A stretch of 52,933 bases of DNA, the filler included, from Jimgerdemannia flammicorona (lineage: Eukaryota), in assembly GCA_003990765.1 (NCBI GenBank). It is 2 parts of 2 records of this genome, joined end to end, with 100 filler letters (N's around TTAATTAATTAA, not from the genome) between each part and the next. Parts side by side here need not be neighbours in the genome. Positions count along the whole stretch, not along the records: positions 26,524 to 52,933 come from RBNJ01000731.1; 1 more part is not named here. The stretch is one strand, 5' to 3'. Numbering within the stretch: the stretch's first letter is position 1; every line of letters starts with the position of its first letter. Positions 5,336 to 51,915 of this stretch are shown piece by piece. The position numbers and the translations under genes are program-made. The notes below the pieces were generated by a model. The model was not told the DNA's origin. It ran no database searches and worked only from the letters and a program-made list of their open reading frames with translations.

Positions 5336-5377
<42 letters not shown>

Positions 5378-10689: not shown

Positions 10690-13010
10690 ATGCCGTGCGA
10701 AAAGGGCCGCAGCGCAGAATTTGCGCGAGGTCCTGGGTGCCGGGCTGTGTTTCGCCGAATTGAAGTACAATGACCAGAGGTACGTTTGAGGTGTTTGCAC
10801 TGGCGTTGGCTGGAGGGGCTTGCTGGGTTGGATTTGGGGGTCACACCGCCTCTTTGTTTTCTCAACACAATCCCCCGCAATCTACACAAGATGCAGATTC
10901 ACTTCGATGCCTTTTAGCCGTCCGGCCGACAAATCACCGTTTTCAGTAAGAGCAAGTGCAATTCGACGAGGGATCGTGCGGGAACGTGGAGGTTACATGT
11001 ACATGTATTCTTTTGTACGCCTCGGTTAGTGTGTATGATGGAGGATTCGTTCACGCGGAATTTGTTCCGATCCGGCGCTTTAACACACATCTGTTTCGTA
11101 GGATCATCAAATCCGCGTTGGACCACGACCCCTCGTTCGTTCGATCCGTGTTCGCTTCTTTTCCTTATATTACTGGAGACTTTTTCCCACAAATTACAAC
11201 GAAAAAGACCCTTGCCCTCTTGTGCGCGAGTGGCTGAGTTGCTAGTTTACAAAAAGTGGAGGGCCGGATAGAGAAGTTTGGGTCCGTACGTGAGCTGCAG
11301 GATGAATCAAGTACGTCTCTCATTCCCTTTTTGTTTTTGATACTGGATTCTCATCTCCTTGGTTCCCGCCATTTCGTTTTCCGTCGTACCTGCTAATTTG
11401 GTTGGGAACGTGGCACTTTTTACTCATATTCTTTGATATTCTTTATCCCGATGGGAGAAGCTTGATGGGGAGGACGAACGGAGAGAGGAGGCGGGCATTG
11501 GAGGCCGTCGTGAGGGTTGTGCCGAACTATGTGTGTTTTTTTAAAAAATAAAATAAAATAAAATAAAATAAATAAAATAAAATAAAAATAAAAAATAAAA
11601 AAAATTAAGAGGAAGAGAACGAAGAATATTTGATTTGTGTCGTCAAATCTGTTGGATGTCGTATGCATTCAGCCGTTTTTTCAGCTCCCACCACAAATGT
11701 TCGATTGGGTTTAGGTCGGGCGATTGCGCGGGCCAGTCTAACGTGCGAATCGAATTATTTTGAAGCCATTTGCGCGTCATTTTGGACGAGTGCTTGGAGT
11801 CGTTATCGTGTTGGAATATGATCTCTTTTTTTTTTTTTGATTGAGTTTATAATAATCGATCGTTTGAAGCAATTCTTCGCCAAGGATATTAATATATAAT
11901 TCGGAATCCATTCGGCCATCGAGTATCCGACCGCCTTGTACGTCATAATTACATCCCCAAAGCACGCACATGGCTCGGTTTCAACGTTGCGCCCAGCCTA
12001 CGCCATATCCATTCACGCCCAAACGGTTAATTTTCGTTCCGTCGTCGAACACGACGCGTTTCCAGTCATCGACGGTCCAATCTTTATGCTTGGTTGCGAA
12101 TTCGTATCGAGCTTTGATTTGACGAGGCAGCAAAAGCGGGTTTTTTTTTGCTTGACGTATGCCTTCAGACCGGCCTTTTTGAGAGTTCTTTTCACCGTGC
12201 TGACACTCGACGTTGTCTTGCCGCTCGCCAGTGTCCTGCCGCTCGCCAGTGTCCTGCCGCTCGCCAGTGTCTTGCCGCTCTTTTGAGGAGCTTTGACGAC
12301 CTGGTAAGGCAGATAATGCCTCCAAGGTCGTCAAAGCTCTTCAAAAGAGCGGCAAGACACTGGCGAACGGCAAGACAACGTCAGCACGGTGAAAAGAACT
12401 CTCAAAAAGGCCGGTCTGAAGGTGTATGCCAAGCAAAAAAAAACCGCTTTTGCTGCCTTGTCACGATACGAATTCGCAACCAATCATAAATATTGGACCG
12501 TCGATGACTGGAAACGCGTCGTTGGTGTAGAAGTGAGATCGTCGCGATCCTGACCGCTCGTTTTCCGTGTGTGATGTTCTTTGACGTAATCAGTCCATGC
12601 TTGCCGACCGATTTCCGGCACGAGAACGGCATGCAGGTTCATTCTTTACAACTTTCCAGCCGTCTTCAGTACGTGTCCTCACGTGAAGTTTATTCCCCTC
12701 CACAATCCCGACACACACAAACAGCGCCTCTGCAACCACATCTCCCACGTTACCCCCATGCTTCGCTCGTGGTCAAGTGCACCGACTCAGACTGTAATCC
12801 CAAGTGTGGCTACGATAGTAGAGGTGCTTGCTGGGTCAAGGTGAAGAGGGATTATATCAAAGGACTTGGTATGTGCAGTGTGCGAAGAGGAGGGTGAGGT
12901 TATTGGTACAGGGCGATCGGGGAACATATTTTGGGTGAGCATGCGATACCGCGGATTCTGTGGTCGCCAAGGCGCGGTACGGGCCAGGGGATATGCTAAA
13001 AGGTGAGTAT
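10690..13010 (+). pseudogene. Fragmented ATP-dependent DNA ligase pseudogene interrupted by a Tc1 remnant
   Basis: Fragments in ligase motif order: AELLVY..GRIEKFGSVR (~11235-11300), VMFFDVI (~12570), LVVKCTDS..WVKVKRDYIKGLG (12765-12870, motifs IV/V), DTADSVVAKARY (~12945-12980). Frameshifted. Confidence 0.7.
11640..12522 (-). mobile_element. Tc1/mariner (DD34E-type) transposase remnant with inverted partial duplication
   Basis: Minus-strand KRTLKKAGLKA..., KDWTVDDWKRVVFDDGTKINRLG, GRMDSELYINILGEELLQT, FQHDNDSKHSS, DWPAQSPDLNPIEHLW; frameshifts present. Confidence 0.9.
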
Positions 13011-14770: not shown

Positions 14771-15284
14771 TGAAGGAAGGTGAAAGAGTTAACGACAAAC
14801 CTCAGTCAACATGTTGCAACCGTGAATGGTTGCCCCGGTAGCGCGAGCACACATGCCGATATGTGCATGGTTGCGTCAGGCAGCGTGTTGCTCGGTCCAC
14901 GACCCATTGGCGTTGATGCCATTGTAGGCCCAACAGAGACCGAGGATTCCCACCTTGAGGGCGCGGCAGAAGTTACGAACGACGGTCTCCGGGGGGAGAA
15001 GCGGTAGGAACCGCCGAGTCGATGGCAAATGTTGACGGTGACGTGGTAGAAGCCGATGCTGACGGCGTGGTGGAAGTCGATGGTCGATTATAACATGGAA
15101 GCCTTAATAATAATAAAAAAAAAAGATGTTGAGTTTCTTACGGGCAAACTGAATAGAGAAGTTCGCAATGCTTGGCATTGCTTTCCTTTCCCAAAAGATA
15201 ATTCAGGAAAGGTGAAAATAGAAGTACAAAAAGGTCAATAGAATAGGTGAAAAAGAATAGGGCGGCGTAAGGTGTTGTATTGGA

Positions 15285-15427
15285 ACCCATCACCCATCAA
15301 TACGTCACGTCACCCATCAATACGCCACCCATCAGTACGTCACCCTACGCCACCCATCACATCAATACGTCACCCATTAATACGTCCCCTATCAATACGT
15401 CACCCATCAATACGCCACCCATCAATC
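15285..15427 (+). repeat. Minisatellite, ~15-bp unit CACCCATCAATACGT
   Basis: About 9 imperfect tandem copies visible. Confidence 0.85.
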
Positions 15428-16741: not shown

Positions 16742-18369
16742 TGTAATGTGCCAGCTCAATAGAGGCAAATTACAAGGTTGGAGGTTGATGTAGTTTGGCT
16801 TGAGCCCCCAGTTACTTTGTTAAAAAGCAACAAAATGTTCTAAGATTCCTTGTTGGTGTTTAGTGGTATAATAGTCAAATCAGATACAATGGTCGATTCT
16901 GGCAGATTTCCTTTTTGGGACGGGTTTTTGGGTGTAGCGACGATTTGTATGGCGGGTGACGGCAGACGATCTTGTGTAGCGCGAGTGGGTTTCTTTATGC
17001 AATTTCTGCGTGATGATCTTCTGTGTATCGCGACGATCTCTGTGTAGCGCGAGTGGATTTCCTTACGCGATTTCTGCGTAATGATCTTGTTTCCAAAGTA
17101 TGCGTGATGATCTTGGCGGGCTTCCTTATGCGGGTCTTCTAAAAATGGCGGGTGACGCGGGATTCCTTAATAAGCGGCGAGTTACTTGAATAACTCGGTT
17201 GGCGGATAACTCGATAACTCGGATGGCGCGGATAACTTGATAACTCGGATGGCGCAGATTCTTCCTGAATCGGCGGGCTTCTTGAATAATAACTCTTGGA
17301 AAAGTTACGTCAAAGACTGGCTTCGTTTGCGCGGAGTTATGTCAAATGACTGGCTCTACTGTGAAGTTGCATCAAGATAGACTGGCTTTGTGGCAAGAGG
17401 GACTTCAGGCTTATCTGGCAAGTGGACCAAAATGTGGTGATCGGAAAGTGGACTGAAGTGGAAAAGGGAATCAGGCTTACAATCTCCTAGTAGTGGCTGT
17501 AGAGCAGGCATTTCTCCTAAGTGTTGCAATCCAATTCCTTTAGGATCAAGTGGCTTTTGGCAGGTGTATCCCTCAAAGTGTAGTAGGCAGACTTGTCTTT
17601 TGCTTTTCGGTTTAATTTTGGACTGAGGTTTATTCACTCTTGTCTCTGGGGTATTTTATACAAGTTAGTTACTATCTGATTACTATGTGGCTAACTATAG
17701 ATTACTATTTATAGCAGGTGTCCAGTATTCTGAACTGGTACAGTGTACTGGTCTGGTACAGTACACTGGTCCAGTACAGCATACTGGTCTGGTACAGTGC
17801 ACTGGTCCAGTACAGCATACTGGTCTGGTTCAGGTAAATATACTCTTTCTGATATTTCTGACTAATTATCCAAGTTGATACAGTAAAGTAGTCATGATTG
17901 TCTAGTGTATCTGTTATGGTATGCAGCTATTTTATAATTCTGATGATACAATTTCTACTACTTGTTACAATATAAAATACTCCAGAGATATGAGTAAACA
18001 AACCTCAATCTGAAATCTGAGTTAAAAGTAAAAGACAAATCTATCTATAATATATATCAGAAGATATATCTGCCAAGAGCCACTTGATTCAAGAAAAAAA
18101 TTGCAACACTTAGAAGAAACACTCACTCAAAAGCTACTGTTAAGGAGATTGTAAGCTTCTTTCTGATTTCACTCCCCATTTCAAGATATTTCACTTTTGG
18201 TATACTTGCCAGACTGAAGAATTGCCACCAAGTTCTAAAGAGGAACTGCGCCATTTTTGATAAACCATTGAACGTTTTGTTACTTTTTTGACAAAGTAAC
18301 AGGGGGCTCAAGCCAATTCACATAGCTACCCCACCTTGTAATTTGCCTCTATTAAGCCAGCACGTTACA
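16742..18369. mobile_element. ~1.63-kb TGTAA...TTACA-bounded LTR-like/foldback element with long inverted arms
   Basis: 16742-16840 is an inverted copy of 18270-18369; ~17400-17660 is an inverted copy of ~17970-18220; central tandem repeats near 17730-17830. Confidence 0.7.
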
Positions 18370-21177: not shown

Positions 21178-21213
<36 letters not shown>

Positions 21214-27373: not shown

Positions 27374-28351
27374 CTAATCCTTGCGCATCTTATCTTCCCT
27401 CTTCCCAACCTCGACCTCGAACCGTGTATCCTCCAGCATGAACCGATGCCATATCGGAATCAACGGGATGGTGGATAAGTGCCACAGGCTATGGGCATCG
27501 AACACCCCCCAGTATGGGGGGAAATCAAACACCTCCAGCGCCATGGCCAAACTAACAAGCACGACCCCGGCGGCCGGATACCACGCGAACGCACGGTTCC
27601 CCCCCTTGGCATGCGACCACGATGTATACTGCCAGGCGGACCAGGTGAGCCAGAACAGGTTGTGCAGGACGGCGACCGCGCCGTTGGCAATTATGTTATA
27701 GTGGTAGTCGAAGCGGACAAACGAGAGATAGGAAACGTGTGCGGTGTAGCATGCGAGGCAGAGCATCCCCCAGGCGCCGATTAAGATGGGACTGCGAAGG
27801 CGGAGGATGCGAACGACGGCGAAGAAGAGCGCGTAGAGGATTGAGAGCGCCGCTGAGTAGTAGTCTAGTTTCTCGGTCAAGTTGAAGTCTCGTGTATGGA
27901 AGACCGCCGACCAGAGCCACGAGTTCACACCCACCACCACCCAGCTCAGGTAGTACGGGCGCAAATGGTAGGTAAGGGGGATCTTTTGGCGAAGGACGGA
28001 CCAGTGGCGGAGATGCATGTAGCCGTTCCCTAGAGAGAAGAGGACAGAGGCTGGTTCTTGGATGCCCAAGAAACGGTGGAAGGGCCACTTGCCGTAGTAT
28101 TGGAGAATCGGGTCGTCCGAGAGCTTGGCAGCATCGGTGATCCGGTGCATGCAGGTGTACTCGCAGTTCTGTGGGCAGGTCCAAAAGGTCAGGCGAAGGG
28201 TGAGGGGGAGGGATTGGTCTGGTGAGCAAGTGGTAAGGCTACATATAGTGACGCAGTGGAAGAACTCATAGGATCTATCGCCTTCAGATGCATTGGTGAG
28301 TTGGATGAGGAGAGCGAAGGCGAAAGCGGCGAAAAGGAGGGAGGGTTTCAT
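27374..28351 (-). CDS. PER1: PER1/PGAP3 GPI-anchor remodelling protein (intronless, 325 aa)
   Basis: Signal peptide, ASEGD, FWTCPQNCEYTCMH, QYYGKWPFHRFLGIQEPASVLFS, WLWSAVFHTRD..TEKLDY, FDFPP..FDAHSLWH; C-terminal KxKD-like ER-retrieval tail. Confidence 0.97.
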   Translation of the reverse strand: MKPSLLFAAFAFALLIQLTNASEGDRSYEFFHCVTICSLTTCSPDQSLPLTLRLTFWTCPQNCEYTCMHRITDAAKLSDDPILQYYGKWPFHRFLGIQEPASVLFSLGNGYMHLRHWSVLRQKIPLTYHLRPYYLSWVVVGVNSWLWSAVFHTRDFNLTEKLDYYSAALSILYALFFAVVRILRLRSPILIGAWGMLCLACYTAHVSYLSFVRFDYHYNIIANGAVAVLHNLFWLTWSAWQYTSWSHAKGGNRAFAWYPAAGVVLVSLAMALEVFDFPPYWGVFDAHSLWHLSTIPLIPIWHRFMLEDTRFEVEVGKREDKMRKD

Positions 28352-28648: not shown

Positions 28649-30528
28649 TCACCCATTCCGCGGCCTGCAAAACACATCGTGCATCTGGTACACGAACCCG
28701 GAAAACGTTGATCCCTTAGATCCAATCACGACTCTACCATTTGCCGCAGCCGTCGCATCAATCATAGGTATGAAGTATCTCTCCAATGATACACCATCGT
28801 ACGGATTCCGAGCTGCCCGCAGCTCCTTCCAGTTTATCCCCTCATCCGCTAAAAAGTCTCCCAGTGTGAAGGTGCACGGATAAGCGTTGTAGAGCGAGGC
28901 GAAAATACGGTTCGCGCGGGGGTATTGCGCGTCCGTCGCCATGTAGACTAGCGTCAGGTTGTTACCGGCTTCCGAGGCGGCTTGAAGGCATTGTGAGACG
29001 GTTGGGTTGGAAGGGAGTACTGGGGGTATGGAAGGAAGACCAGCAGTCGCGTTGACGGTGTGGAGATTCTCGAGGATGGTTCCAATGTTTTGTTGCTGAA
29101 CTCTGGCGAAGTAGCCGTCGCTGGTTCTGATATGGTAGCGGTGACCAATAGATGATATAAAGGAGTTGGTAAAAATTAATAACAATTAGAACGAAATTTC
29201 CCGCCAAACAATGCCGAAGGAACCTCACAAAATCATGCCAAAACCCAACACCAATCGCAAGTCTTTCGCTATCCTACTCACCTAACATGCAACCCAACGA
29301 ACTTTCCCGCGCCCCCCATCCTCTGCACAACCTCCTGGGCGCTCTTCAGGACGACTGGATGGTTATAGAGCAGGCTCCGCCTGAGTCTGCGCAGGAATTC
29401 AAAGTGGACGGGATCGCGGACCGGCATTTTTCCCGTGCCAAACAGGCTGCTGAAATGAAGAAGACGTTCGGAGAAGGTCCGAAGCTGCATCACGTCTAGA
29501 CGGGCCTCGTACTTGCCATTGCTACTGCCGCCGACAAATGTGTCGAAGATGCGCCAGTCGTAGCGTGTCGTGCCTACGGTAGAGTGCAAAATTGGATGGG
29601 GCGATTGATCGTAAGCGGTGGGCACGGATAAAAAAATTTCGGCCATCTTTTATATCATCCAGGATACCGCCTCCCCATATCTACTGTCCCATTCACTAAT
29701 AATAATAATAAAATTTACCATTGAAATATCTGATATCCCCATCCACATACGATCCACCCTTTCCCTCGACCCCCGCCCTCTTGATTCCCACAGCTTTCTC
29801 CAACCACTCCTCACTCATCTCCTCCCTTAGTTGGATTCTGACATGCTCACGAACCCAGTCAAACGAGAATAGCTCGTCGTACGGCATGAGCGTGTATTCC
29901 GCCGGATTTGGGCACATTTGGTCTCCGCGCTCGTCCCGTAGTGCGTCGCACGCAGCCGCGTTCGATCCGTCGGGTGTCTTTTCGTGTATCAGGTGCTCAA
30001 GTCGGAGCTGTGACATTGGCGACCAAGGGAAGGGCTTGCCAAGGAGGGCGCGTGGGAGGAGGAGGGTACGGTTCGTGTACCAGGCAAGCATGATAGCGTT
30101 TTCGACTGCATTTCATTATTATTATTTTTTTTATTTTATTTTTTTTATTTTATTTTTTTTTTTTGGGGGGGGGGGAGGAGATGGGAGAGGTGTTAAGTGG
30201 AACGCGAGATAGATTGAGCAGGTTGTACACACACTGAAGGATACCGACCTTGAATTAACTGGTTATGAAATCCACTGTGCGGGTAGAAGGTGATGAACTT
30301 CTCGTTTTGCACCACGATCGCGTTACTCTTCTTCCATTCAGCGCCCGAAAACTGGCCGGTGTAATTTGTTGTGAGGAAGCTGTAAACTACGTCATCAGTA
30401 GGTAGTAAAGGCGGGGCGTTCTCCAGTGCGTCCTGCAGCTCGTTCCAGGCCCTCCAGGACAGAAAGCTGAAGATGGCCAGGGCGACGACGAGCAAGAATA
30501 TTAGTACTCGTACAGTGACGGTGAGCAT
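28649..30528 (-). CDS. O-fucosyltransferase-like (GT-B; CigA-like) type II membrane glycosyltransferase, about 4 exons
   Basis: N-terminal TM anchor; FITFYPHSGFHNQLIQ|ENAIMLAWYTNRTLLLP; LLHFSSLFGTG; FVGLHVRTSDGYF; VYMATD; IDATAAANGRVVIGSKGSTFS. Confidence 0.85.
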
Positions 30529-33324: not shown

Positions 33325-33360
<36 letters not shown>

Positions 33361-33895: not shown

Positions 33896-35082
33896 ATGGC
33901 GAAGGCGATAGTACGGAAAACAACGACGAGCGCGGCATCTTGTAGAATAAAAAACGAACCGGAGTATGAGGGTGTTAAACAAACCAGATATGTGGAGCTG
34001 AAGATTGAAGATGAGAGTAAAAATTTGAAGGACATAGAGGTTGACCCTGAAAACAAAGACGAAGACGCTACCAGACAGACAGGGTAATATTATTAGTAGT
34101 TATAATAACTGTACTTGCATCGAAGTTCCGAGATTTACTAATGCATATGATCGCATAGCTCACAGCTGAAGGTTAGAGAACTACGGCAAAAATATGGCAT
34201 CTCCGAGGCGTCTTGGAATAGGATTAAGACCGCCCTTGTTAGCCATCTTCTGCTCGTGGACCTTTTCCCATCTTTGACTGGGTTCCCAGGCGGAGATTTT
34301 GTATCAAATGTGCTCAAACGCCTTGCATTGAACACCATTGATAAGAATGGAGAAATCTACGGCGCAGTGCGTATATTTGATTCCAGTTTTCTCATAATAT
34401 ACGAGAGCCCGAGTCAACTGTTCTCAAACTATTGTTACATTCCTGGCATCTATATAGGTTAAGCACCAAATTGTACTCTGTAGATCTCGCATCAGGGAAA
34501 TGTTCAGAGTACGATTCGATGACATATTTCGCGATGTGGAGATTCCTACCAAGTTTGCTCTCGGCAACATAAATGAGGAACGCCGAAAGTCGGTTCAACA
34601 CCTTGTATACAAAAACAAATTCCTTTACACACGTGACCCGACTACCGGCTATCTCGAGAAGCCGTTCGCAAGCATATATATCAAACGTTCCCTATACCAT
34701 TTGGTCCTGAAACGTAATCCTCGCTTTGCGAACGTGATTGGCCCCGACAGACACATCACTCTGAACACTCTTGCAGGCGTGTGTACCTTCGTAAGTTTTC
34801 TTAGTACTAAGTATACTGAATTATTCTGTCTTAAATAGTTCGCAGGATCTAATTAGTGTTTTATCCACATGCTAGCTGGAGTGTATCATGACGAAACAGC
34901 CAGCCTTCAGGGAGAAGACGCATAAATCTATGTATACGAAGTGGGTCCGCATGGTCGAGGAAACAAAGTCGCACATCGACCTGTTGGCAATCGAGAGAGA
35001 AGCCGGTAAAATCGGTAATATTGAAGAGGGAGATGTCGTTGTTATTCCGGACGTCCCTCTAATACTCGTGGATTCGGATTAG
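33896..35082 (+). CDS. Multi-exon hypothetical protein, C-terminal region DUF6532-like (about 4 exons)
   Basis: Spliceable ORFs 33896-34083, ~34159-34360, ~34458-34790, ~34875-35082; FLYTRD..EKPFAS.YIK..TLAGVCTF|LECIM..FREK..MY pattern. The domain call is from memory of the pattern only. Confidence 0.6.
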
Positions 35083-35187: not shown

Positions 35188-35272
35188 TCTGTAGTTCCCG
35201 AACATTTCTCGAACATTCCTCTGTGGTTCCCGAACATTCCTCTGTAGTTCCCGAACATTCCTATGTAGTTCC
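35188..35272 (+). repeat. Minisatellite, 21-bp unit CTGTAGTTCCCGAACATTCCT
   Basis: About 4 tandem copies. Confidence 0.85.
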
Positions 35273-36425
35273 GGCACAATTCCAAACAACTAATACGCTT
35301 TGATATTGCTCAACAAGTTTACACGAATTATGTTAGTATAGCAATGCATTAAACAATACGTTTCTATCCGTTCACAAAGTCCTGATCCGGAAGTGTTCTG
35401 ATTCTGCTTCGCGCTGTTCTACAGCAGCCCAAGTCCGGAGCGCACAGTCCGGTTCGCGCCGGATCCGGGGCAGGCCTGGTTCGTCCGGCGAACTAGGGCG
35501 TCCTTCCTCGGCCGAAATGATTCTCTCAGGGAATCATGGAATGAGCGACGTTGTATCATTCGCGACAGACCATAGAGACTGCCATAAAGTCTAAAACAAC
35601 GCCCGATCGCGAAGTGACTCGTCGTGGTTGCTGTTCGGGTTACAAAGTGACAGGTCAAAATGACCCAGGATTTCACGGATGATCTCGGGTGGGAGGCTGG
35701 ACGAGGGACGATGCGGCTCATTTAGGGGGACTTATTTCTGTGAAGGTTTTGGTCTTTTGGGTTTCATTGTTTTGCGGTGTGGTACTTGTATGAGTACGAA
35801 ATAGTAGGGTGTTTGGTTCCACACGTCATGTTGCAATCAGACTCTGGGGTGCGGTCACACCATCATAATTACAGTTAACTCTCGTGTCCCTCGCAACTAC
35901 ATTGTATACATGTTTTGATTTATTTTGGGGAAAGTCGGAATATCGACATTGCGTGGCGAATGGTCAGTTCGGCATAAGCGAACCCGACAGGTGCGAAAAC
36001 GGGATGAAGTCGCTAGTTGCAGGATTGCAGCGAAGCGGAAGAGGAACAACGATGTGTTTGGCAAATTGTATTTTAAAGGGGAAAATGCAAGGTTACACAG
36101 ATTTGACCCGTTATACCTATTGCTATTCCTACTTCTTGGTTGCCCAGAATGTTTGAAAGACGTCACCACCAATGAGATGCCGCAAAAAATCGGACACCCA
36201 TTAAATATCTCGAACGCCTTGCGACAGGTTGAGCTTTCACTTAAGATAAGTAGTTAACCATTTAATTTTTTGTCTAGCTGCATTTCGTCCAAGTGGGAAG
36301 CTTGCTTGACTCAATATTATTTTTTCACTTGGAGCACCATTTACACCTGGCCGAAGTACTCACATTCTTTGGGCCGCCAGTGGCTCTGCAATGGAGCTCT
36401 CTAGTGAGAGCTAACTTGCACCCAC

Positions 36426-36486
36426 GGCAGGTCTTGGTTGCTTTTACAGCCAACTGATGAGCCCCTTAAGCAAGGGTGAAACCGCC
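36426..36486 (+). ncRNA. Type III hammerhead ribozyme
   Basis: GGCAG-GTC(36431-33), stem I TTGGTTG/CAGCCAA with loop CTTTTA, core CTGATGA (36454-60), stem II GCCCCTT/AAGGGT with loop AAGC, GAAA, then stem III ACCGCC pairing GGC(A)GGT with one bulged A. Confidence 0.8.
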
Positions 36487-36689
36487 ATTTCCAACCTGGT
36501 CGTTGCCAACCATGTTGTAATTATACACATACATTTTGGAAATAAAGAATAAAGCAACCTTTAAAATGTCCGGTCTGGACTGCCTTTTCCTTGTTTGCGT
36601 CCAGAACATTGTGCTTCACGTCAACATCCTTCGACACGTCCACGTGTTCGTGTCAACATCGAGTCCATGCGTTCGCATCAATACCTCGG

Positions 36690-37295
36690 ATTCACATGTT
36701 TGCGTCAACATCCTTTGAGAAGTTCAAATCACAGACAAGGAACCTGCGAGCCCTTCCGAATGCGAATGCAAAACCTATTCCTACCACCAAGAGCAGGCTA
36801 ATTACGATGGAGTACATGACAAAGGTTCTCGAGGACAAGACACGCATGTCATACGACAGCAAGTACAACTTGTATTTGTATTGCAAACTCCCACAGGGCA
36901 AACCAACCTGTATTTGTATTGCAAACTCCCATAGGGCATGTCCGAAGTGAGTTTGTCTATTTGTTTGGACTCAACTGTTTTTTGGCAGTTTGTTGGGTGA
37001 ATCCATTCTGTCTGATTCTCCCACTGATACCTCTAAACCTTCTCCCTCCCCCAGGTCACGCAAATCAGTCTCGATCTCGACAAAACCATCCACTTGGAAG
37101 CCTTCAAAGGCAATCGCTCCACTGCACCCAGCAAGCCGGTCTGGTCATCACTGTTGTGAACATTCTCAATAGCCTCATTCACCAATGGCCCGTCCCACAA
37201 TACATTGCCGCCGGCAAGAATTTTTACTATCCGGCGACACTATCCCAGTGTTCGGTGGCTTTGAGGCCGGAGGAGCGCTTTCCAGAGTAATAGGA
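36690..37295 (+). pseudogene. Argonaute N-terminal (ArgoN + linker 1) fragment
   Basis: SYDSKYNLYL..KLP (cf. AYDG.KNLY), then after an intron VVNILNSLIHQWP..YIAAGKNFY..PVFGGFEA..RGAFQS-like sequence (cf. GRSFF..LGGG.E.W.G..QS). Frameshifts; no PAZ or PIWI downstream. Confidence 0.65.
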
Positions 37296-37519
37296 AGGGC
37301 GGGGATGGTTCATATATATATGTTTTTTTTTTTTTTTTTTTTTTTTTTTCGGGAGGCGTTGCTTGGTGGTGTTGATGGCAGCGATGTAGAGGATCTATAT
37401 GGATGTGGATGGACAATGAGTTGATTTAGATTTTATTAATTTGATGTGTTTAATTGCTTCCTGGATTATTATTAATACATATATGTCCTATTTGCTTTTG
37501 ATCCTCTTTTTTCCCACAT

Positions 37520-40200
37520 TTATTTTAACATAGACAAACTCTTCATGAATGTTGATGCTGTAGTTGCCAATGACCGAATTTGTACTTGAATAGCTCTATC
37601 AATTTTTTGAGATCAGCAAACTAAGGATCTGAACAAGGTAATGTTTTTATAGACCTTTTATGTCTACTTGTTGGTTGTCTTGTCTCTATATTTTATGAAT
37701 AATTTAGACCTAGGAGAATAATTGAAAAGATATCTGAACCTAACATTGGTAGTTCCAGCACTATTACAGAACTACTACCAAGAATATCAAGTCTACCAAA
37801 AATCACAGCAGATCTAATAATCACTCTATCAAGCCATTAGTCTATAAGCTCACCCATCTCAGTAATATCATAAAAGAGTCAATTTCAAATTACAATCAAC
37901 ATACTACAATAACAAAAGAAGAACCTCAACTATCTCACTAAATAGATAATAGAGATAGTAGAATAATATTAGTAGATAACAAGATAGTAGTACTAGCTGA
38001 ATAAGTAGCTATACTTACTCAAATTCTTTATCTTAGTATTGAAACAAACAAATCCACTAAAGGCCTCTGTCTCATACTATTCAAAAGTAAAGTAGACTAA
38101 GTAACAACATTTATAGGACAAGTTGACACTAATTATTAATGGATAAAATAATAATCAGAACTCAAACAGTACTCTCAATAATAATAAGCACTATGAGATT
38201 GAAGATCTCTATATAACTATAGACTCATAAGTATAAAAAGTTACTATCTATTTTATAGATATAGCTGCTCAGTAGTACCACAATCTATCAGTATACTCTC
38301 TTATCTGAAAAATCTATACTGAAATTGATACAAGTAAAGGAGATAATGATCACTTTAACTATAAGTTTACTTAACTACTGTAGACCTAAAGAAATTAATC
38401 ATCCAATAATTCCACAGCTCTGCCCATATTGCCAAAGTCAGAATCAATCTCAAGAATCTTTAATTTTATAATAATAAAAAAGAAGATCTTAAAGTATTTG
38501 CTATAAGACTAAAAATTCTTCTAAATACTATATGTAAGAGCAAAATACAGCTAATGAGAATAGACTGTAAATAGAACCTGAGCCATCTATTTCTTTGATA
38601 CCATCTCTGGATGATTATTAGAGAAAATTTATAAATAAGAATAACTCTATAATTGCCCACATAAGTAATAGTGTCTATAATAAGCTATTATCAGATTATA
38701 TACTATTCTTACAGCTCAAAGGCTAAGAGACAATAGAAACAATAATAAAGGAGACAAACAATATCAAATTGAAAAAAAGTATGAAACTCAGAATAAGTCC
38801 TCAAGACTACAAAATAGATTTAAAAAACTATCTGATAAGAAAATAGAAAAACTTATAAAAAAAGAAGTATATTTTTACTACAAAAAGAGAGAACATACAT
38901 ATGTCTCATAAATACTCTGATAAGAAGACCAATATAAATAAAGAACTATTCTTCTTATATACTATTATTATGATAGGAGATAACTCTAAAGGAATCTCTG
39001 AAAAAATTAAGGTTAAGAGATTCTATATTATTATAAAAATTCTAAACACATCATATGAATCAAATACTAGCTATAATATCTACTCTAGTATAGAAGTAAC
39101 TATCAAACCAAGTAAGTAAGTAACTATTAACACAGATGTTAGAATAGAAGCCTCCAAAGAAACCTATATCTGTTTTATAAAAAAGAACAGTCTGGTCAAG
39201 AAAGAGAGACTCTATATAATTAGAGAAGTTATAGACCAAGAATTTAAAGGTAAAATCAAGTTCTGCTATATAATACTAGACAGAAGACAGTTGAAATCAT
39301 ATGTGGAAAATAAATTGCCCATATTGTCATTGAGATAATATGCAATAATCTTAAATTTGAAGAAACAAATGAACTATCACTTTCTGATAAAGAAGAAAAA
39401 GCTTTTAGATCAACAAAAAAGTACCTAAGGCCAAAGAGAAGGCCAAGATATAGAAGATTATCTATATTAAAGAACCTAAGATCAAGACTAGAAATAGTTA
39501 TCAAAATTAAGTATATTGCTAGAACTAAGAATAAAGTAGCTGATGCTCTCTCCCAGAGTACTCAGAAAGACAACCTCACTGTGATTAATAACATTATCAC
39601 TAGCCTATTTGAAGAAGTTAAGAAAGAGTATACCAAGGATATCATTATATAAAAAATCATTAAATAAATCTTTAAAAAAGGAAGCAATATCATGAAGAAG
39701 GTCTATAAGAATATATCTGTCCAAAATGGATATATATATCTTAATAATATAAGAATTTAGATCTCTGACATCTCTATCTACTTATAAATCCTATAAGAAC
39801 TACATAATATACCACTTAGTCAATATCACCAATATTATCAGTAATAACCAAAGAATATCTTCACCCTGACTACTCCCCAGAACCAAGCTGAAGAAGTCAA
39901 TAGAATCATCACTGAGTAGACTGAGATCTATATCAGCTAAGAGAAATTTGACAGACTTAACAATGAAATCACCTAAGAAATATTCAACACATTTATCATA
40001 CTTAACAAAGAAGTCACCCACACTCAAGGAGTCAGAAAAGAATTTGAAAGATTAATCAGCAGCTACTTTGATGAGAAATGTATAAGAGAATCTATTGAAG
40101 CTGCAAGTGAACATTTCCTGAATCTCCTCCTCAACAATTGCTCACATGCTGAAACCAACCTCCCGATCAAGCAGTTCACAGAACAAGTAGTCTGTGGCGG
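37520..40200 (+). mobile_element. Heavily mutated Ty3/Gypsy remnant
   Basis: IKYIARTKNKVADALSQ at ~39505-39555 (RNase H end motif) followed by an integrase-Zn-like IL.ELHN.P; AT-rich, nearly no CpG, many stops. Confidence 0.7.
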
Positions 40201-43121: not shown

Positions 43122-45644
43122 ATGATCCATTTGAAATTTTCAATCCTTGCTTCGGCACTACTTGGCGTCCTCTCAGCGGTCGGCGACGCGGCTTCGGTGA
43201 CCCCGTACAAGTGGGGCAACGTCAAGATTGGCGGCGGAGGCTTTGTCCCTGGCATTGTTTATTCCTCAACCCAGTCAGGTTTACTGTATGCGCGCACCGA
43301 CATTGGTGGAGCCTACCGTTGGACGGCGAGCAAACCGCAGTGGACCCCCATTACGGACATCTTTAGCGCAGCATCTTCGAATTTTCTCGGAGTCGAAAGT
43401 ATCGCGACCGATGCAAAGGATCCGAAGCGTCTTTATATTGCTGTCGGTCAGTACGTGAAATCATGGGCCGGAAACGGGGCCATTCTTGCGTCAAAGGTAA
43501 ATTCATTTGAGCATACGCTATTGCAAATGTCCGCTGGCAAGTGAGTCCAATATTGACAATGCCTTCTTTGTAGAATCAAGGCAATACGTGGACCACCCAA
43601 TGGAATGCTTCGTTCCCGATGGGAAGCAATGAGGATGGACGCGGCGCTGGCGAACGTCTGGCAGTCAACCCGGTCAACAACAATATCATCTTTTTCGGCT
43701 CTCGAACAGCCGGATTGTGGATGAGTACGAATTACGGCCAGTCGTTCACTCTGGTGACCAGGTTAGGAAAATAAAAAAATTCTTTAGCAAAGGCGTGTTT
43801 TTTGGGAGCGTAACGTCATTAGATTTAACAATGGATTATATATTGTTATAATAACCGAATCTTTAGTTACCCGACGCCACCCACTGATAACAACGGCAAA
43901 GGAATTGTCTTTGTTCAATTCGCTCCGAATACACGAGGTCAAACCGTGTTTGCGGGTTCCCACGACTTCAACAACCCCTTGTACCGTAGTACTAACGGCG
44001 GGAAGACTTGGTCAAGTGTTTCGGGACAACCAAAGGGTTATTTCCCTATGCGCAGTGCCTTTTCTTCCGACGGTCGCTCCCTTTACGTGACTTACAGCAA
44101 CGGCCCCGGACCCAATGGTGTGACAAACGGTGCAGTATGGAAATATACTCTCTCAAGCGGCGAGTGGACCGACATCACCCCAAAGAAGCCCAAGGTGAAC
44201 TCCAACCCATCTTTCGGTTATTCTGGGGTTTCCACGGATGCAAAGAATCCAGAAATCGTTGTCGTTTCTACAATTAACAATTGGGCCTTGGGTGACGACG
44301 TCTATCGAAGTCTTGATGGTGGATCGACTTGGAAATCGCTCAAATCGACCGCCGTCCAGGATATAAAGGTGGCACCCTGGTTGAAATTTGGCAAAACCGC
44401 ACCTGGTTTCGGCTGGTGGATCTCAGATGTGAAGATTGATCCATTCAATTCCAATAGAATTCTATATGTAACCGGTGCTACTATCTACGGTTCAACCGAC
44501 GTGAACAATGCTGACTCTGGAAAGCAAACGCATTGGAGCCCCGTAACGAAAGGATTGGAAGAAACTTCGGTCCAAGGTACGGAGAAAGGAAATATAGAGG
44601 CAAGCAATAGGAATACAGCAGACCGGTTTAATTTAAACTAATCTATTTCACTGTTTTCGTTGCCAGATTTGGCCTCCCCACCTAGTGGGCCCGCGCTGTT
44701 TGATGCCATTGGCGATCTCGGAGGCTTCACCCATCAAAACGTAAGCAGGGCTGCTCAAATGTGGACCAACCCCATGTGCAGCTCCGGCAGCTCGGTCAAC
44801 TTCGCTGGTCAGAAACCCAGTTATGTTGCTCGTGCGGGTACGGATGGTGGAGGGTATAGCGTAAATGCTGGGAAGACGTGGAAGAAATTCACCGGTGTCC
44901 CACCTAATGGTTCTGGCGGTTTGGGAAAGATCGCTGTGTCAGCCGACGGCAAGACTATCGTGTGGACACCTTCCAATGCCGATGCATATTGGTCTCGGAA
45001 TAACGGCACAAATTGGACTGCGGTTTCTGGGCTCAATCCTGCCAATCTCGCTGTTGTTGCTGACGGTTGGGACCCGAAGACCTTCTACGCATACGACACC
45101 AACAGTGGGACTCTTTGGGCTAGTACTAACTCGGGCAAGGTAAAGATTTAACAAGATCAACCTCTGCGATTTCCAAATCATTCTGTGATCAACACTAACA
45201 AAATCTTGCGTTCAAATGTATTGGCAGACATTCGTCAAGCGTGCCACTGGCGTCGTAACTGGTTCTGGGGTTCTGAACACAGTCTATGGCAGCAAGGGAA
45301 CTGGAGATCTGTGGCTTGCATCTGACGACGGTTTATATCATTCGACCAACGGTGGTAAGACATTCTCAAAAATTACAGGCGTGACTTCTGCTGAAGCTGT
45401 CGGATTTGGAGCACCCGCATCTGGCTCTTCCTACTCTGTCACTGTGTATATTGCTGGTGTTGTTGACGGGTTCTACGGCGTCCATCGTTCGGTGGACGGT
45501 GGTACCACCTGGACTCAGCTGAACGATGCGAAGCATCAGTGGGGTTGGATTGGGAAGAAGGTCATCGGTGATCCCAGAAAGTTTGGGAGAGTTTACGTGG
45601 CCACAAATGGGCGAGGCATTGTCCTTGGTGATGACGCTTCATAG
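43122..45644 (+). CDS. Secreted GH74 xyloglucanase (exons ~43122-43496, 43574-43761, 43867-44577, 44668-45139, 45228-45644)
   Basis: Signal peptide; YKWGNVKIGGGGFVPG..LYARTDIGGAYRW (catalytic Asp), GSNEDGRGAGERLAVNP, GWWISDVKIDPFNS, GLEET, IGDLGGF (second catalytic Asp), GDPRKFGRVYVATNGRGI; BNR/Asp-box repeats. Confidence 0.96.
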
Positions 45645-50125: not shown

Positions 50126-51539
50126 TATCTGGCGAACTGTTTAGACCTTCCAAATGTCCCTACCACCTTACTATCCCAATTTTCTGCGACGGTGCCAGAA
50201 CGTTCACGGTTTCGGTGCTTAAATTTCGGCTTTCAGCCTTTCAAAATGCCCTTCTTTGCATTCACAGTACTGACGGGCACTGATCGTTCGTCGCTATTAT
50301 ATATGTTCGTCCTTTGCCGCGCTAATTGCCTTTCATAGTATCTCCATTATCTCCATGTTGCTAGGCACAAGTTTTTCTGCCAAGGCGGTCATCATGATCG
50401 GTTAGTCACACTGATCAGAACTTGTCCTTGCATTAACAGAATCGCTAAATGGTCCGCCAAAATATTTGGCTGCAGTATTAGGAAATGATTGGTCAGTCCT
50501 GGCTGTCCAAAGGCGCGAGCGAAGTGTAGAGGCACTTGAGGGGCAAACGGGTTGGGCGGAGGATTCCCATAGTTCCCTGCGCTGCGGATAAGGACTTTTG
50601 TTATCCATGCTGCTGATTGCCACCACATCGATGTGTATTGCCAAAGGCGAAGAGTAGTTGGTGTGAATGACTGTACCTACTAGAGTCATAATTTCCCAGC
50701 AGAGTGTATACAAAATATAATCCAATTCATTAAACTGTTCTATTATATAAAATGGTAATCTAGACGAATAGCGCCCTGACGACATCAGATATGACAGTGG
50801 TGGCTTTCGTCACAGCGTCGATTGTACAAACCACCGTGTCAGTTTCACAGGTCTGAGACGAAGTGATCTCCATTATAAAGTTGTACTTCACGTGTCGATC
50901 ATACCATCAATGTTCTCATTGGATTTGCCCGAAGGTAACAGCCGGTTGGGCCTGAACCGCAAGTAAGTGCATCATCGAAGCGTTTGAGTAGGGTTTCATA
51001 AATTGCTCGATCAATAAGCTCGTCGACGACTTCGTCGACTGGAATTTGTAAGCTAAGATATGATGGCGGAATGCTAGAGAAAGATGGTTCACAAACCAGA
51101 TTATTATTGCCGACAGAGGAATACATAATAACTTCGTTTTTTTTTTTTTTAAAAAAAAAAAAAGTTGATCGTGGTGGCTTCTTGACGTTCTGCTAATCCT
51201 AGAACTAAGCCGGGTAAGGCAATGCTCCCTTGTCGCCTTATGACATATACAGAATCCCCCGGCCCCTCGGAGCTAGATGGGGCATCTTCAATCACTCCAA
51301 GTGATTTTCTTCCACTACGTTGTTGGGATCTTATGTTTTGTTGCTCGAGGCATCCTTTAGACGCTCTAGTCGTTTCCGTTATTTGCGTAGTTCAGTTGAA
51401 CATATTGATGACGTCGCCCTCGTAGACTCAATTATGCATAAAGTGAAGTGTGGTTAATAGACGCAAAGTGTCTTTATTCCGGTTCCAATCCTTTTTCTCA
51501 ATCGTTTTTGTTAGCTAGTATTCAATTAACATGTGCAGA

Positions 51540-51915
51540 GCGGGCACGTCGATGTTACTCTTGGACGCCACTTCACTTCGCCGTGGCGAAGGGGGACGTC
51601 GATATTGTGATTGCTCTTGCCGACTCTAAGGCGGATGCCAACGCCAGGGGTAACTTTATATGGACGCCGCTTCACCTAGTTGCGCGGAACAGGCACATAG
51701 ACATCGTGAGGTTGCTCTTGGCCTACTCCAAGACATACGCCAGCGCCAGAGAAGAGGATAATTGGTCATCGCTTCACTTGGCTGCACAGGACGGGCACAT
51801 CGAGATTGCAAAGGTTTTCGTGACCAACTTCGGCATGCCATGACCAACGGATCGAGGCCGCTTCCCATCGCTACTGGGAAAGGACACATCGAGATGGTGA
51901 GGATGACCGACAAGA
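51540..51915 (+). pseudogene. Ankyrin repeat gene fragment (3-4 repeats), frameshifted
   Basis: WTPLHFAVAKGDVDIV, WTPLHLVARNRHIDIV, SSLHLAAQDGHIEIA, then an out-of-frame PLPIATGKGHIEMV. Confidence 0.8.

Follow-up and report, generated by a model that had tools for sequence, protein, structure and literature searches.

A putative type III hammerhead ribozyme in genomic DNA of an Endogonales-related fungus and its probable place in a retrozyme-like repeat family

The window, by which we mean the whole 52.9-kb stretch of DNA analyzed here, carries one complete type III hammerhead ribozyme motif, located on the + strand and followed ~60 nt downstream by two AATAAA signals (Table 1). Several protein-coding pieces are recognizable by Pfam elsewhere in the window, and a Per1-family ORF occupies positions 27374–28351 on the – strand. 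The protein encoded by this ORF is 62% identical to its counterpart in Jimgerdemannia flammicorona and 67% identical to that of Endogone sp., as compared with less than ~52% for other Mucoromycota. As the nearest relatives of the Per1 protein are in Endogonales, the host is taken to be an Endogonales relative, which agrees with the fungal origin given in a preliminary description of this DNA.

The surroundings of the ribozyme contain no convincing coding sequence, and no recognizable gene was found within ~1.3 kb upstream on the + strand. Among Pfam matches, a weak DUF6532 fragment (34458–34835) lies closest, and it is below the Pfam cut-off. A Pfam scan covering 112 of the 171 stop-to-stop ORFs of at least 85 amino acids in the whole window revealed no reverse transcriptase (RT), GIY-YIG, or integrase domain, consistent with the earlier statement that no RT ORF is adjacent. 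Neither a tRNA gene nor a telomere repeat was found in the window, and no LTR-like repeat was detected within its 33–40 kb portion. The motif is also solitary. No other ribozyme match occurs on either strand of the 52.9 kb at E≤10, and the segment 35700–36700 has no second copy within the window, so that the description of the locus as a solo copy holds at this scale.

Table 1. Coordinates of the ribozyme motif, its parts, and other features of the window
Feature	Position	Strand	Basis or remark
Complete type III hammerhead ribozyme motif	36426–36486	+	RF00008 alignment; lone descriptor-scan match; X5 contig record 11 (36427–36484)
Helix III 5' strand GGCAGGU, A36429 bulged, U36432 = U16.1	36426–36432	+	pairs with 36481–36486
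C17, predicted cleavage site (between C36433 and U36434)	36433	+	GUC triplet in covariance-model alignment; cleavage inferred
Helix I hairpin, 7 bp (36434–36440 with 36447–36453), 6-nt loop CUUUUA (36441–36446)	36434–36453	+	
Core CUGAUGA (C3–A9)	36454–36460	+	sequence and covariance-model alignment
Helix II hairpin, 4 bp (G·U, C-G, C-G, C-G), 9-nt loop	36461–36477	+	
Core GAAA (G12–A15.1) at 36478–36481, then helix III 3' strand CCGCC (36482–36486)	36478–36486	+	
Two AATAAA signals	36541–36546 and 36548–36553	+	~60 nt downstream of ribozyme
Upstream flank, low X5 depth	36343–36425	+	records 9 (36343–36467, depth 34.6) and 10 (36369–36467, depth 29), 2–3 other letters
Neighboring segment, multi-copy or abundant in X5	35877–35977		summed depth ≤389; loose ends before 35877 in 3 contigs
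Second neighboring segment abundant in X5	36082–36175		summed depth ≤909.7
Arginase exons, O-fucosyltransferase-like piece, BNR/sortilin-like pieces (below cut-off), ankyrin repeats (Pfam)	2–835, 28649–29185, 43829–45148, 51442–51840		

All invariant nucleotides of the hammerhead core, as this core is defined by Perreault et al. (2011; PMC3088659), are present in the motif (C3 U4 G5 A6 N7 G8 A9, G12 A13 A14, the A15.1–U16.1 pair, and H17), with C36433 as H17 at the end of a GGUC sequence (36430–36433). The topology is that of a type III hammerhead, with helices I and II capped by loops and helix III open in the structure line of cmscan. Helix I is formed by the strands UUGGUUG and CAGCCAA, helix II by GCCC and GGGU (36461–36464 with 36474–36477), and helix III by 6 bp between 36426–36432 and 36481–36486 around the bulged A36429. 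The core-adjacent pairs are U36434–A36453 in helix I (1.1–2.1), the wobble G36461·U36477 in helix II (10.1–11.1), and A36481–U36432 in helix III (15.1–16.1). Relative to the consensus, loop 1 is long, A36429 is bulged out of helix III, and the highly conserved G-C pair at 10.1–11.1 is replaced by G·U.

The GUC triplet, CUGAUGA, GAAA, the two AATAAA signals, and a second GGTC (36498–36501), all of which had been listed in the preliminary description, were each recovered in place. The type I fold proposed earlier as an alternative, which would use the second GGTC, was set aside; its 1.1–2.1 pair would be a G·A mismatch, as judged by eye. The segment that begins with this GGTC (36498–36514, GGTCGTTGCCAACCATG) is similar to the hammerhead's 5' half (GGTC, the helix I strands, then TG) minus the loop. 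As the local alignment score is only 16, the likeness could reflect either a partial duplicate that has decayed or chance.

The Rfam covariance model Hammerhead_3 (RF00008) aligns by Infernal over its full length, positions 1–54 of 54, to 36426–36486. The score of 24.7 bits is low, amounting to about half the RF00008 gathering score of 48.5; the Rfam model is based on plant and viroid sequences. No family among the 4227 in Rfam reaches its gathering score anywhere in the window. Over the 4227 families, the match has an E-value of 0.0035 when 301 nt are searched and of 0.62 when the search space is the entire window; dividing the latter by the number of families gives, by our own arithmetic, a single-family E-value for RF00008 of ~1.5e-4 per window. 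A descriptor consisting of the hammerhead core and helices I, II, and III of at least 4, 3, and 4 bp, respectively, matched the window exactly once, at 36426–36486, with helices of 7, 4, and 6 bp. Both strands of 400 windows simulated with a first-order Markov model yielded one loose match and none with helices this good. The motif is therefore rare in any single window, although some chance matches are expected over very many windows. The end-to-end alignment and the descriptor scan together support the earlier assignment of a near-intact type III hammerhead.

Folding energy does not mark out the hammerhead fold, and the thermodynamic evidence is neutral. The hammerhead fold has an energy of –15.5 kcal/mol as compared with –17.8 kcal/mol for the minimum free energy structure (difference 2.3 kcal/mol). 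Folding z-scores are –0.53 (the 61-mer) and –1.63 (36290–36570).

Contigs or reads from four sequencing runs (X1, X2, X5, and X11) were aligned to positions 35800–37200 at a likeness of at least 80%. The most informative alignments came from X5, a coded run of organism B whose library type is a guess ('RNA?'). Forty-three X5 contigs align within this region, and these fall into likeness classes of 8, 14, 13, and 8 contigs. The summed word depth of X5, which is contig-based and is equivalent to neither copy number nor expression level, is 2668 in the bin 36411–36457 and 5413 in the bin 36458–36504, as against 0–60 in the neighboring bins. This peak has sharp borders. In contigs with other flanks, likeness begins at 36427 or 36430 and ends at 36484; it is lost shortly before 36430 in four contigs and shortly after 36484 in five. 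In record 11, positions 36427–36484 are embedded in an otherwise unmatched contig of 357 nt. The depth peak and the loose ends at the ribozyme edges suggest that the repeated unit is the ribozyme itself, set in other flanks. The abundant segment starts and ends within 1–4 nt of the covariance-model match, and this coincidence with the borders of an abundant and variably flanked segment argues that the motif is a real ribozyme of a repeated family and not a chance match.

The flanks of the X5 copies differ from those of the window. Thirty-nucleotide consensus flanks of these copies have no match in the window at up to 3 mismatches, and by eye they would extend helix III with bases unlike those of the window, with agreement among the flanks of only 0.56–0.58, so that this observation carries little weight. 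One X5 contig joins 36483 directly to 36542 and skips 58 nt, from which it follows that the AATAAA segment adjoins the ribozyme in another copy as well. Two segments upstream of the ribozyme are also covered by X5 (Table 1), and most of the X5 depth at the first of these carries a 10-nt insertion behind 35931.

A single ribozyme variant reaches at least 10% of the depth in X5, namely a 1-nt deletion at 36448 (1502.9 of 3656.4). The deletion is located on the loop-proximal side of helix I, of which 5 bp remain. No variant at T36477 reaches 10% of the summed depth of ~5400. The preliminary description had read the G·U pair closing helix II as consistent with CpG deamination, an idea that finds no backing in X5; the lack of a listed variant at T36477 instead suggests that the G·U closing pair is a family trait of the dominant copies rather than private decay. 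The 10.1–11.1 pair has been described as the most conserved after 15.1–16.1, and in the same account natural variants exist in which helix II starts with a U-U mismatch, which had earlier been shown to support cleavage better than other mispairs (Perreault et al., PMC3088659). A G·U pair at 10.1–11.1 need not abolish activity.

The other runs contributed less. A soil metagenome (X1) has one contig of 219 nt identical to 36401–36619, and organism A (X2) has identical 151-nt pieces upstream and no contig on the ribozyme. None of the raw reads of X11 aligned, a result that has no bearing either way on ribozyme copies. No public run contains the whole of 36100–36800 or at least half of its words, small portions of which occur in X3, X4, X6, and X7, and no RNA run is listed as containing this segment.

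On balance, we consider it probable, with confidence only somewhat above even, that 36426–36486 (+) is a genuine type III hammerhead and a lone member of a retrozyme-like hammerhead repeat family that exists in multiple copies in a Mucoromycota fungus related to Endogonales. The + strand transcript would fold into a three-helix junction, within which the 2'-OH of C36433 would attack the next phosphate, so that C36433 would end in a 2',3'-cyclic phosphate and U36434 would start with a 5'-OH. The life cycle of the family would most likely be retrozyme-like: a tandem pair of ribozymes would free a unit-length noncoding RNA, a host RNA ligase would circularize it, and the RTs of autonomous retroelements would copy the circular RNA back into DNA. 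A locus with one ribozyme and no partner would then be equivalent to a solo LTR or a fragment. Having a single ribozyme without a partner, the locus by itself could not release a unit-length RNA and would at most cut its own transcript. Retrozymes are recognized by two hammerheads within direct repeats of ~300–400 bp around a noncoding center of 300–600 bp, whereas the window has one hammerhead in 52.9 kb; a solo retrozyme copy would lack paired hammerheads anyway. By comparison with known elements, the retrozyme model appears to fit best, in that it combines a type III hammerhead, noncoding repeats, frequent solo LTRs, and a conserved ribozyme.

Four other explanations were weighed against a solitary copy of a retrozyme-like family. 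The motif may be the DNA copy of an RNA replicon, that is, a ribozyme captured from a viroid-like RNA, an ambivirus, or a ribozyme-bearing fungal mitovirus, with the X5 depth reflecting replicating RNA. According to one account, nearly all hammerheads of infectious circular RNAs, those of ambiviruses and mitoviruses included, are of type III (PMC13725137), and the depth contrast in X5, guessed to be RNA, is extreme. But neither strand of the window carries a second ribozyme at E≤10, as ribozymes of both polarities would demand, and the scanned ORFs have no polymerase-like Pfam match, though ambivirus polymerases may be absent from Pfam. The X5 core also occurs in several flanks and in variants (the four likeness classes), which is more like dispersed genomic copies, and ambiviruses have been reported to be significantly less frequent in data sets of Mucoromycota than of Basidiomycota (PMC10237039). 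We consider a captured replicon unlikely, although it is the most credible of the four. An accidental fit of 61 bases to the hammerhead consensus, with no ribozyme history behind it, ranks just after. It would accord with a score under the Rfam threshold, a single copy in the window, a nonsignificant folding z-score of the 61-mer, and the finding of no relatives in the metagenome and viral collections scanned. Against accident stand the 400 simulated windows, with no strict match and one loose match, and the X5 data, since chance does not predict an abundant segment that ends within 1–4 nt of the covariance-model match.

The two remaining explanations accept the ribozyme and assign it to something else. 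The host could have co-opted it as a cis-acting element that, from its place upstream of the two AATAAA signals, cleaves a host transcript close to the 3' end, for instance in RNA regulation or processing. The position of these signals ~60 nt downstream, and the X5 contig that also connects the ribozyme end with the AATAAA segment, would suit such a role, which nevertheless seems very improbable to us: the ~1.3 kb upstream on the + strand holds no recognizable gene, the nearest candidate being the sub-threshold DUF6532 fragment; the abundance with many different flanks seen in X5 is not what a co-opted single-copy element would show; and no RNA run is listed as containing 36100–36800. Lowest of all we place a fragment of a Penelope-like element, in which the hammerhead would derive from the terminal repeat. 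Hammerheads of fungal Penelope-like elements are described as active as monomers (PMC4209133), and the family to which the motif belongs appears to be multi-copy in X5. However, the fungal Penelope-like hammerheads in that publication are of type I with a large helix III, whereas helix III is short and open here in a type III topology, and the window has no telomere repeats and no RT or GIY-YIG ORF among the 112 of 171 ORFs scanned. The Penelope-like model is therefore disfavored as a worse fit than the retrozyme model. The preliminary description had named a solo unit of a retrozyme or Penelope-like family: the abundant X5 core with differing flanks fits a repeat family, and the Penelope-like option loses ground for the reasons just given.

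Among the closest known systems are the retrozymes of plants, which are non-autonomous LTR retroelements (Cervera, Urbina and de la Pena 2016, PMC4918200). According to that work, a hammerhead that occurs singly in a plant genome is as a rule the solo LTR of a retrozyme, and in these elements, which vary in other respects, it is the ribozyme that is conserved. The locus shares with these retrozymes a DNA-encoded type III hammerhead in noncoding surroundings, the occurrence of copies without a partner, and, as the X5 depth suggests, apparent conservation of the ribozyme amid heterogeneous multi-copy sequence. It differs in its fungal host, in scoring low with RF00008, and in the G·U pair that closes helix II. 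Paired LTRs of 300–400 bp, a tRNA-Met PBS (primer-binding site), a polypurine tract (PPT), and a 4-bp target-site duplication (TSD) are features of the plant elements in that description, whereas the motif stands alone here. About one TG...CA pair with a 4-bp TSD is expected by chance.

Among fungi, Penelope-like elements (Cervera and de la Pena 2014, PMC4209133) resemble the locus in having genomic, repeat-associated hammerheads with a stable monomeric fold. Unlike the locus, which is type III, non-telomeric, and has no RT, those described have type I hammerheads with a large helix III and a flanking RT gene, and are often telomeric. In Yarrowia lipolytica (Perreault et al. 2011, PMC3088659), a hammerhead is likewise tied to multi-copy interspersed repeats of a fungal genome, a likeness that concerns the repeats and is drawn apart from ribozyme topology and sequence; the host in that case belongs to Ascomycota. 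Fungal RNA replicons, comprising ambiviruses and viroid-like RNAs (PMC13725137, PMC10237039), resemble the motif in their type III architecture and their fungal hosts. As portrayed in these sources, they are RNA-only circles, usually with ribozymes of both polarities, and in ambiviruses also with a polymerase gene. The motif, in contrast, is confined to one strand of genomic DNA of the nuclear type, and no polymerase ORF was found among the scanned ORFs.

Hammerheads in fungal genomes are already known, both from Penelope-like elements (type I) and from the Yarrowia repeats. In the literature consulted, type III hammerheads encoded in DNA are described from the retrozymes of plants, and fungal ones from RNA replicons. 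No paper on hammerheads in Endogonales, or on type III hammerheads encoded in fungal genomes, emerged from our literature search. A search combining hammerhead ribozymes with Mucoromycota brought up no apparent genomic hammerhead of Mucoromycota; one paper mentions Mucoromycota only within an ambivirus survey, and another appears to concern TatD nucleases. We tentatively raise the possibility, which we hold to be less likely than not, that the locus is the first sign of a type III hammerhead family encoded in DNA at high copy number in an Endogonales-related fungus of a mycorrhizal lineage, a fungal counterpart of plant retrozymes and a reservoir for type III RNA replicons. If true, such a repeated family in an early-diverging fungus with mycorrhizal ties would broaden the range of retrozyme-like elements to include fungi, and the proposed link from genomic ribozyme repeats to infectious circular RNAs would become testable within one host. 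A high-copy fungal family would, in that case, constitute a genomic reservoir from which viroid-like RNAs and ambiviruses could have arisen. A lone decayed motif would be of little consequence.

Relatives were also sought in metagenomes and viral contigs. A family-specific pattern retrieved eight loci from metagenomes, none of which was a hammerhead by eye, and cmscan of six loci (five of these eight and the viral locus L009) gave no hammerhead match. Two specific patterns retrieved one locus and none, respectively, from viral contigs, and the single locus was not a hammerhead. Two looser patterns retrieved 15 and 27 loci from viral contigs; these were by eye type I or II hammerheads of phages, having in common with the motif only the generic bases GGUCUUGG...CCAACUGAUGAG, and were rejected as relatives. 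Four of the IMG/VR viral contigs (L010, L013, L014, and L019) contain pairs of hammerhead-like motifs 309 nt apart, at 601–638 and 910–947, and many further viral contigs have, by eye, type I or II hammerhead-like motifs with closed helix III hairpins.

The window has several other repetitive features. Homopolymer runs of A or T are unusually many, with 16 of 15–35 nt in 52.9 kb (e.g., 5339–5373, 21178–21210, 33326–33359, and 37323–37349); these may be tails left by retroposition or a microsatellite tendency of the genome as a whole. An AT-rich block (37350–40200; GC content of 0.27 at 38–40 kb) begins directly after the last-named poly(T) run; a retroposon on the minus strand or a repeat that has mutated could account for it. 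At 12051–12522, nested inverted repeats of 53–66 nt that are 94–97% complementary surround a weak Tc3-type transposase HTH fragment (11984–12340, – strand), an arrangement that looks like a Tc1/mariner remnant or a foldback element. An 18-nt tandem repeat at 17720–17827 is composed of alternating self-complementary units and gives weak miRNA-like covariance-model matches. Short tandem repeats also occur at 35188–35283, with 21-nt units (TCTGTAGTTCCCGAACATTCC-like), and at 15281–15420, with 15-nt units (ATCAATACGTCACCC-like).
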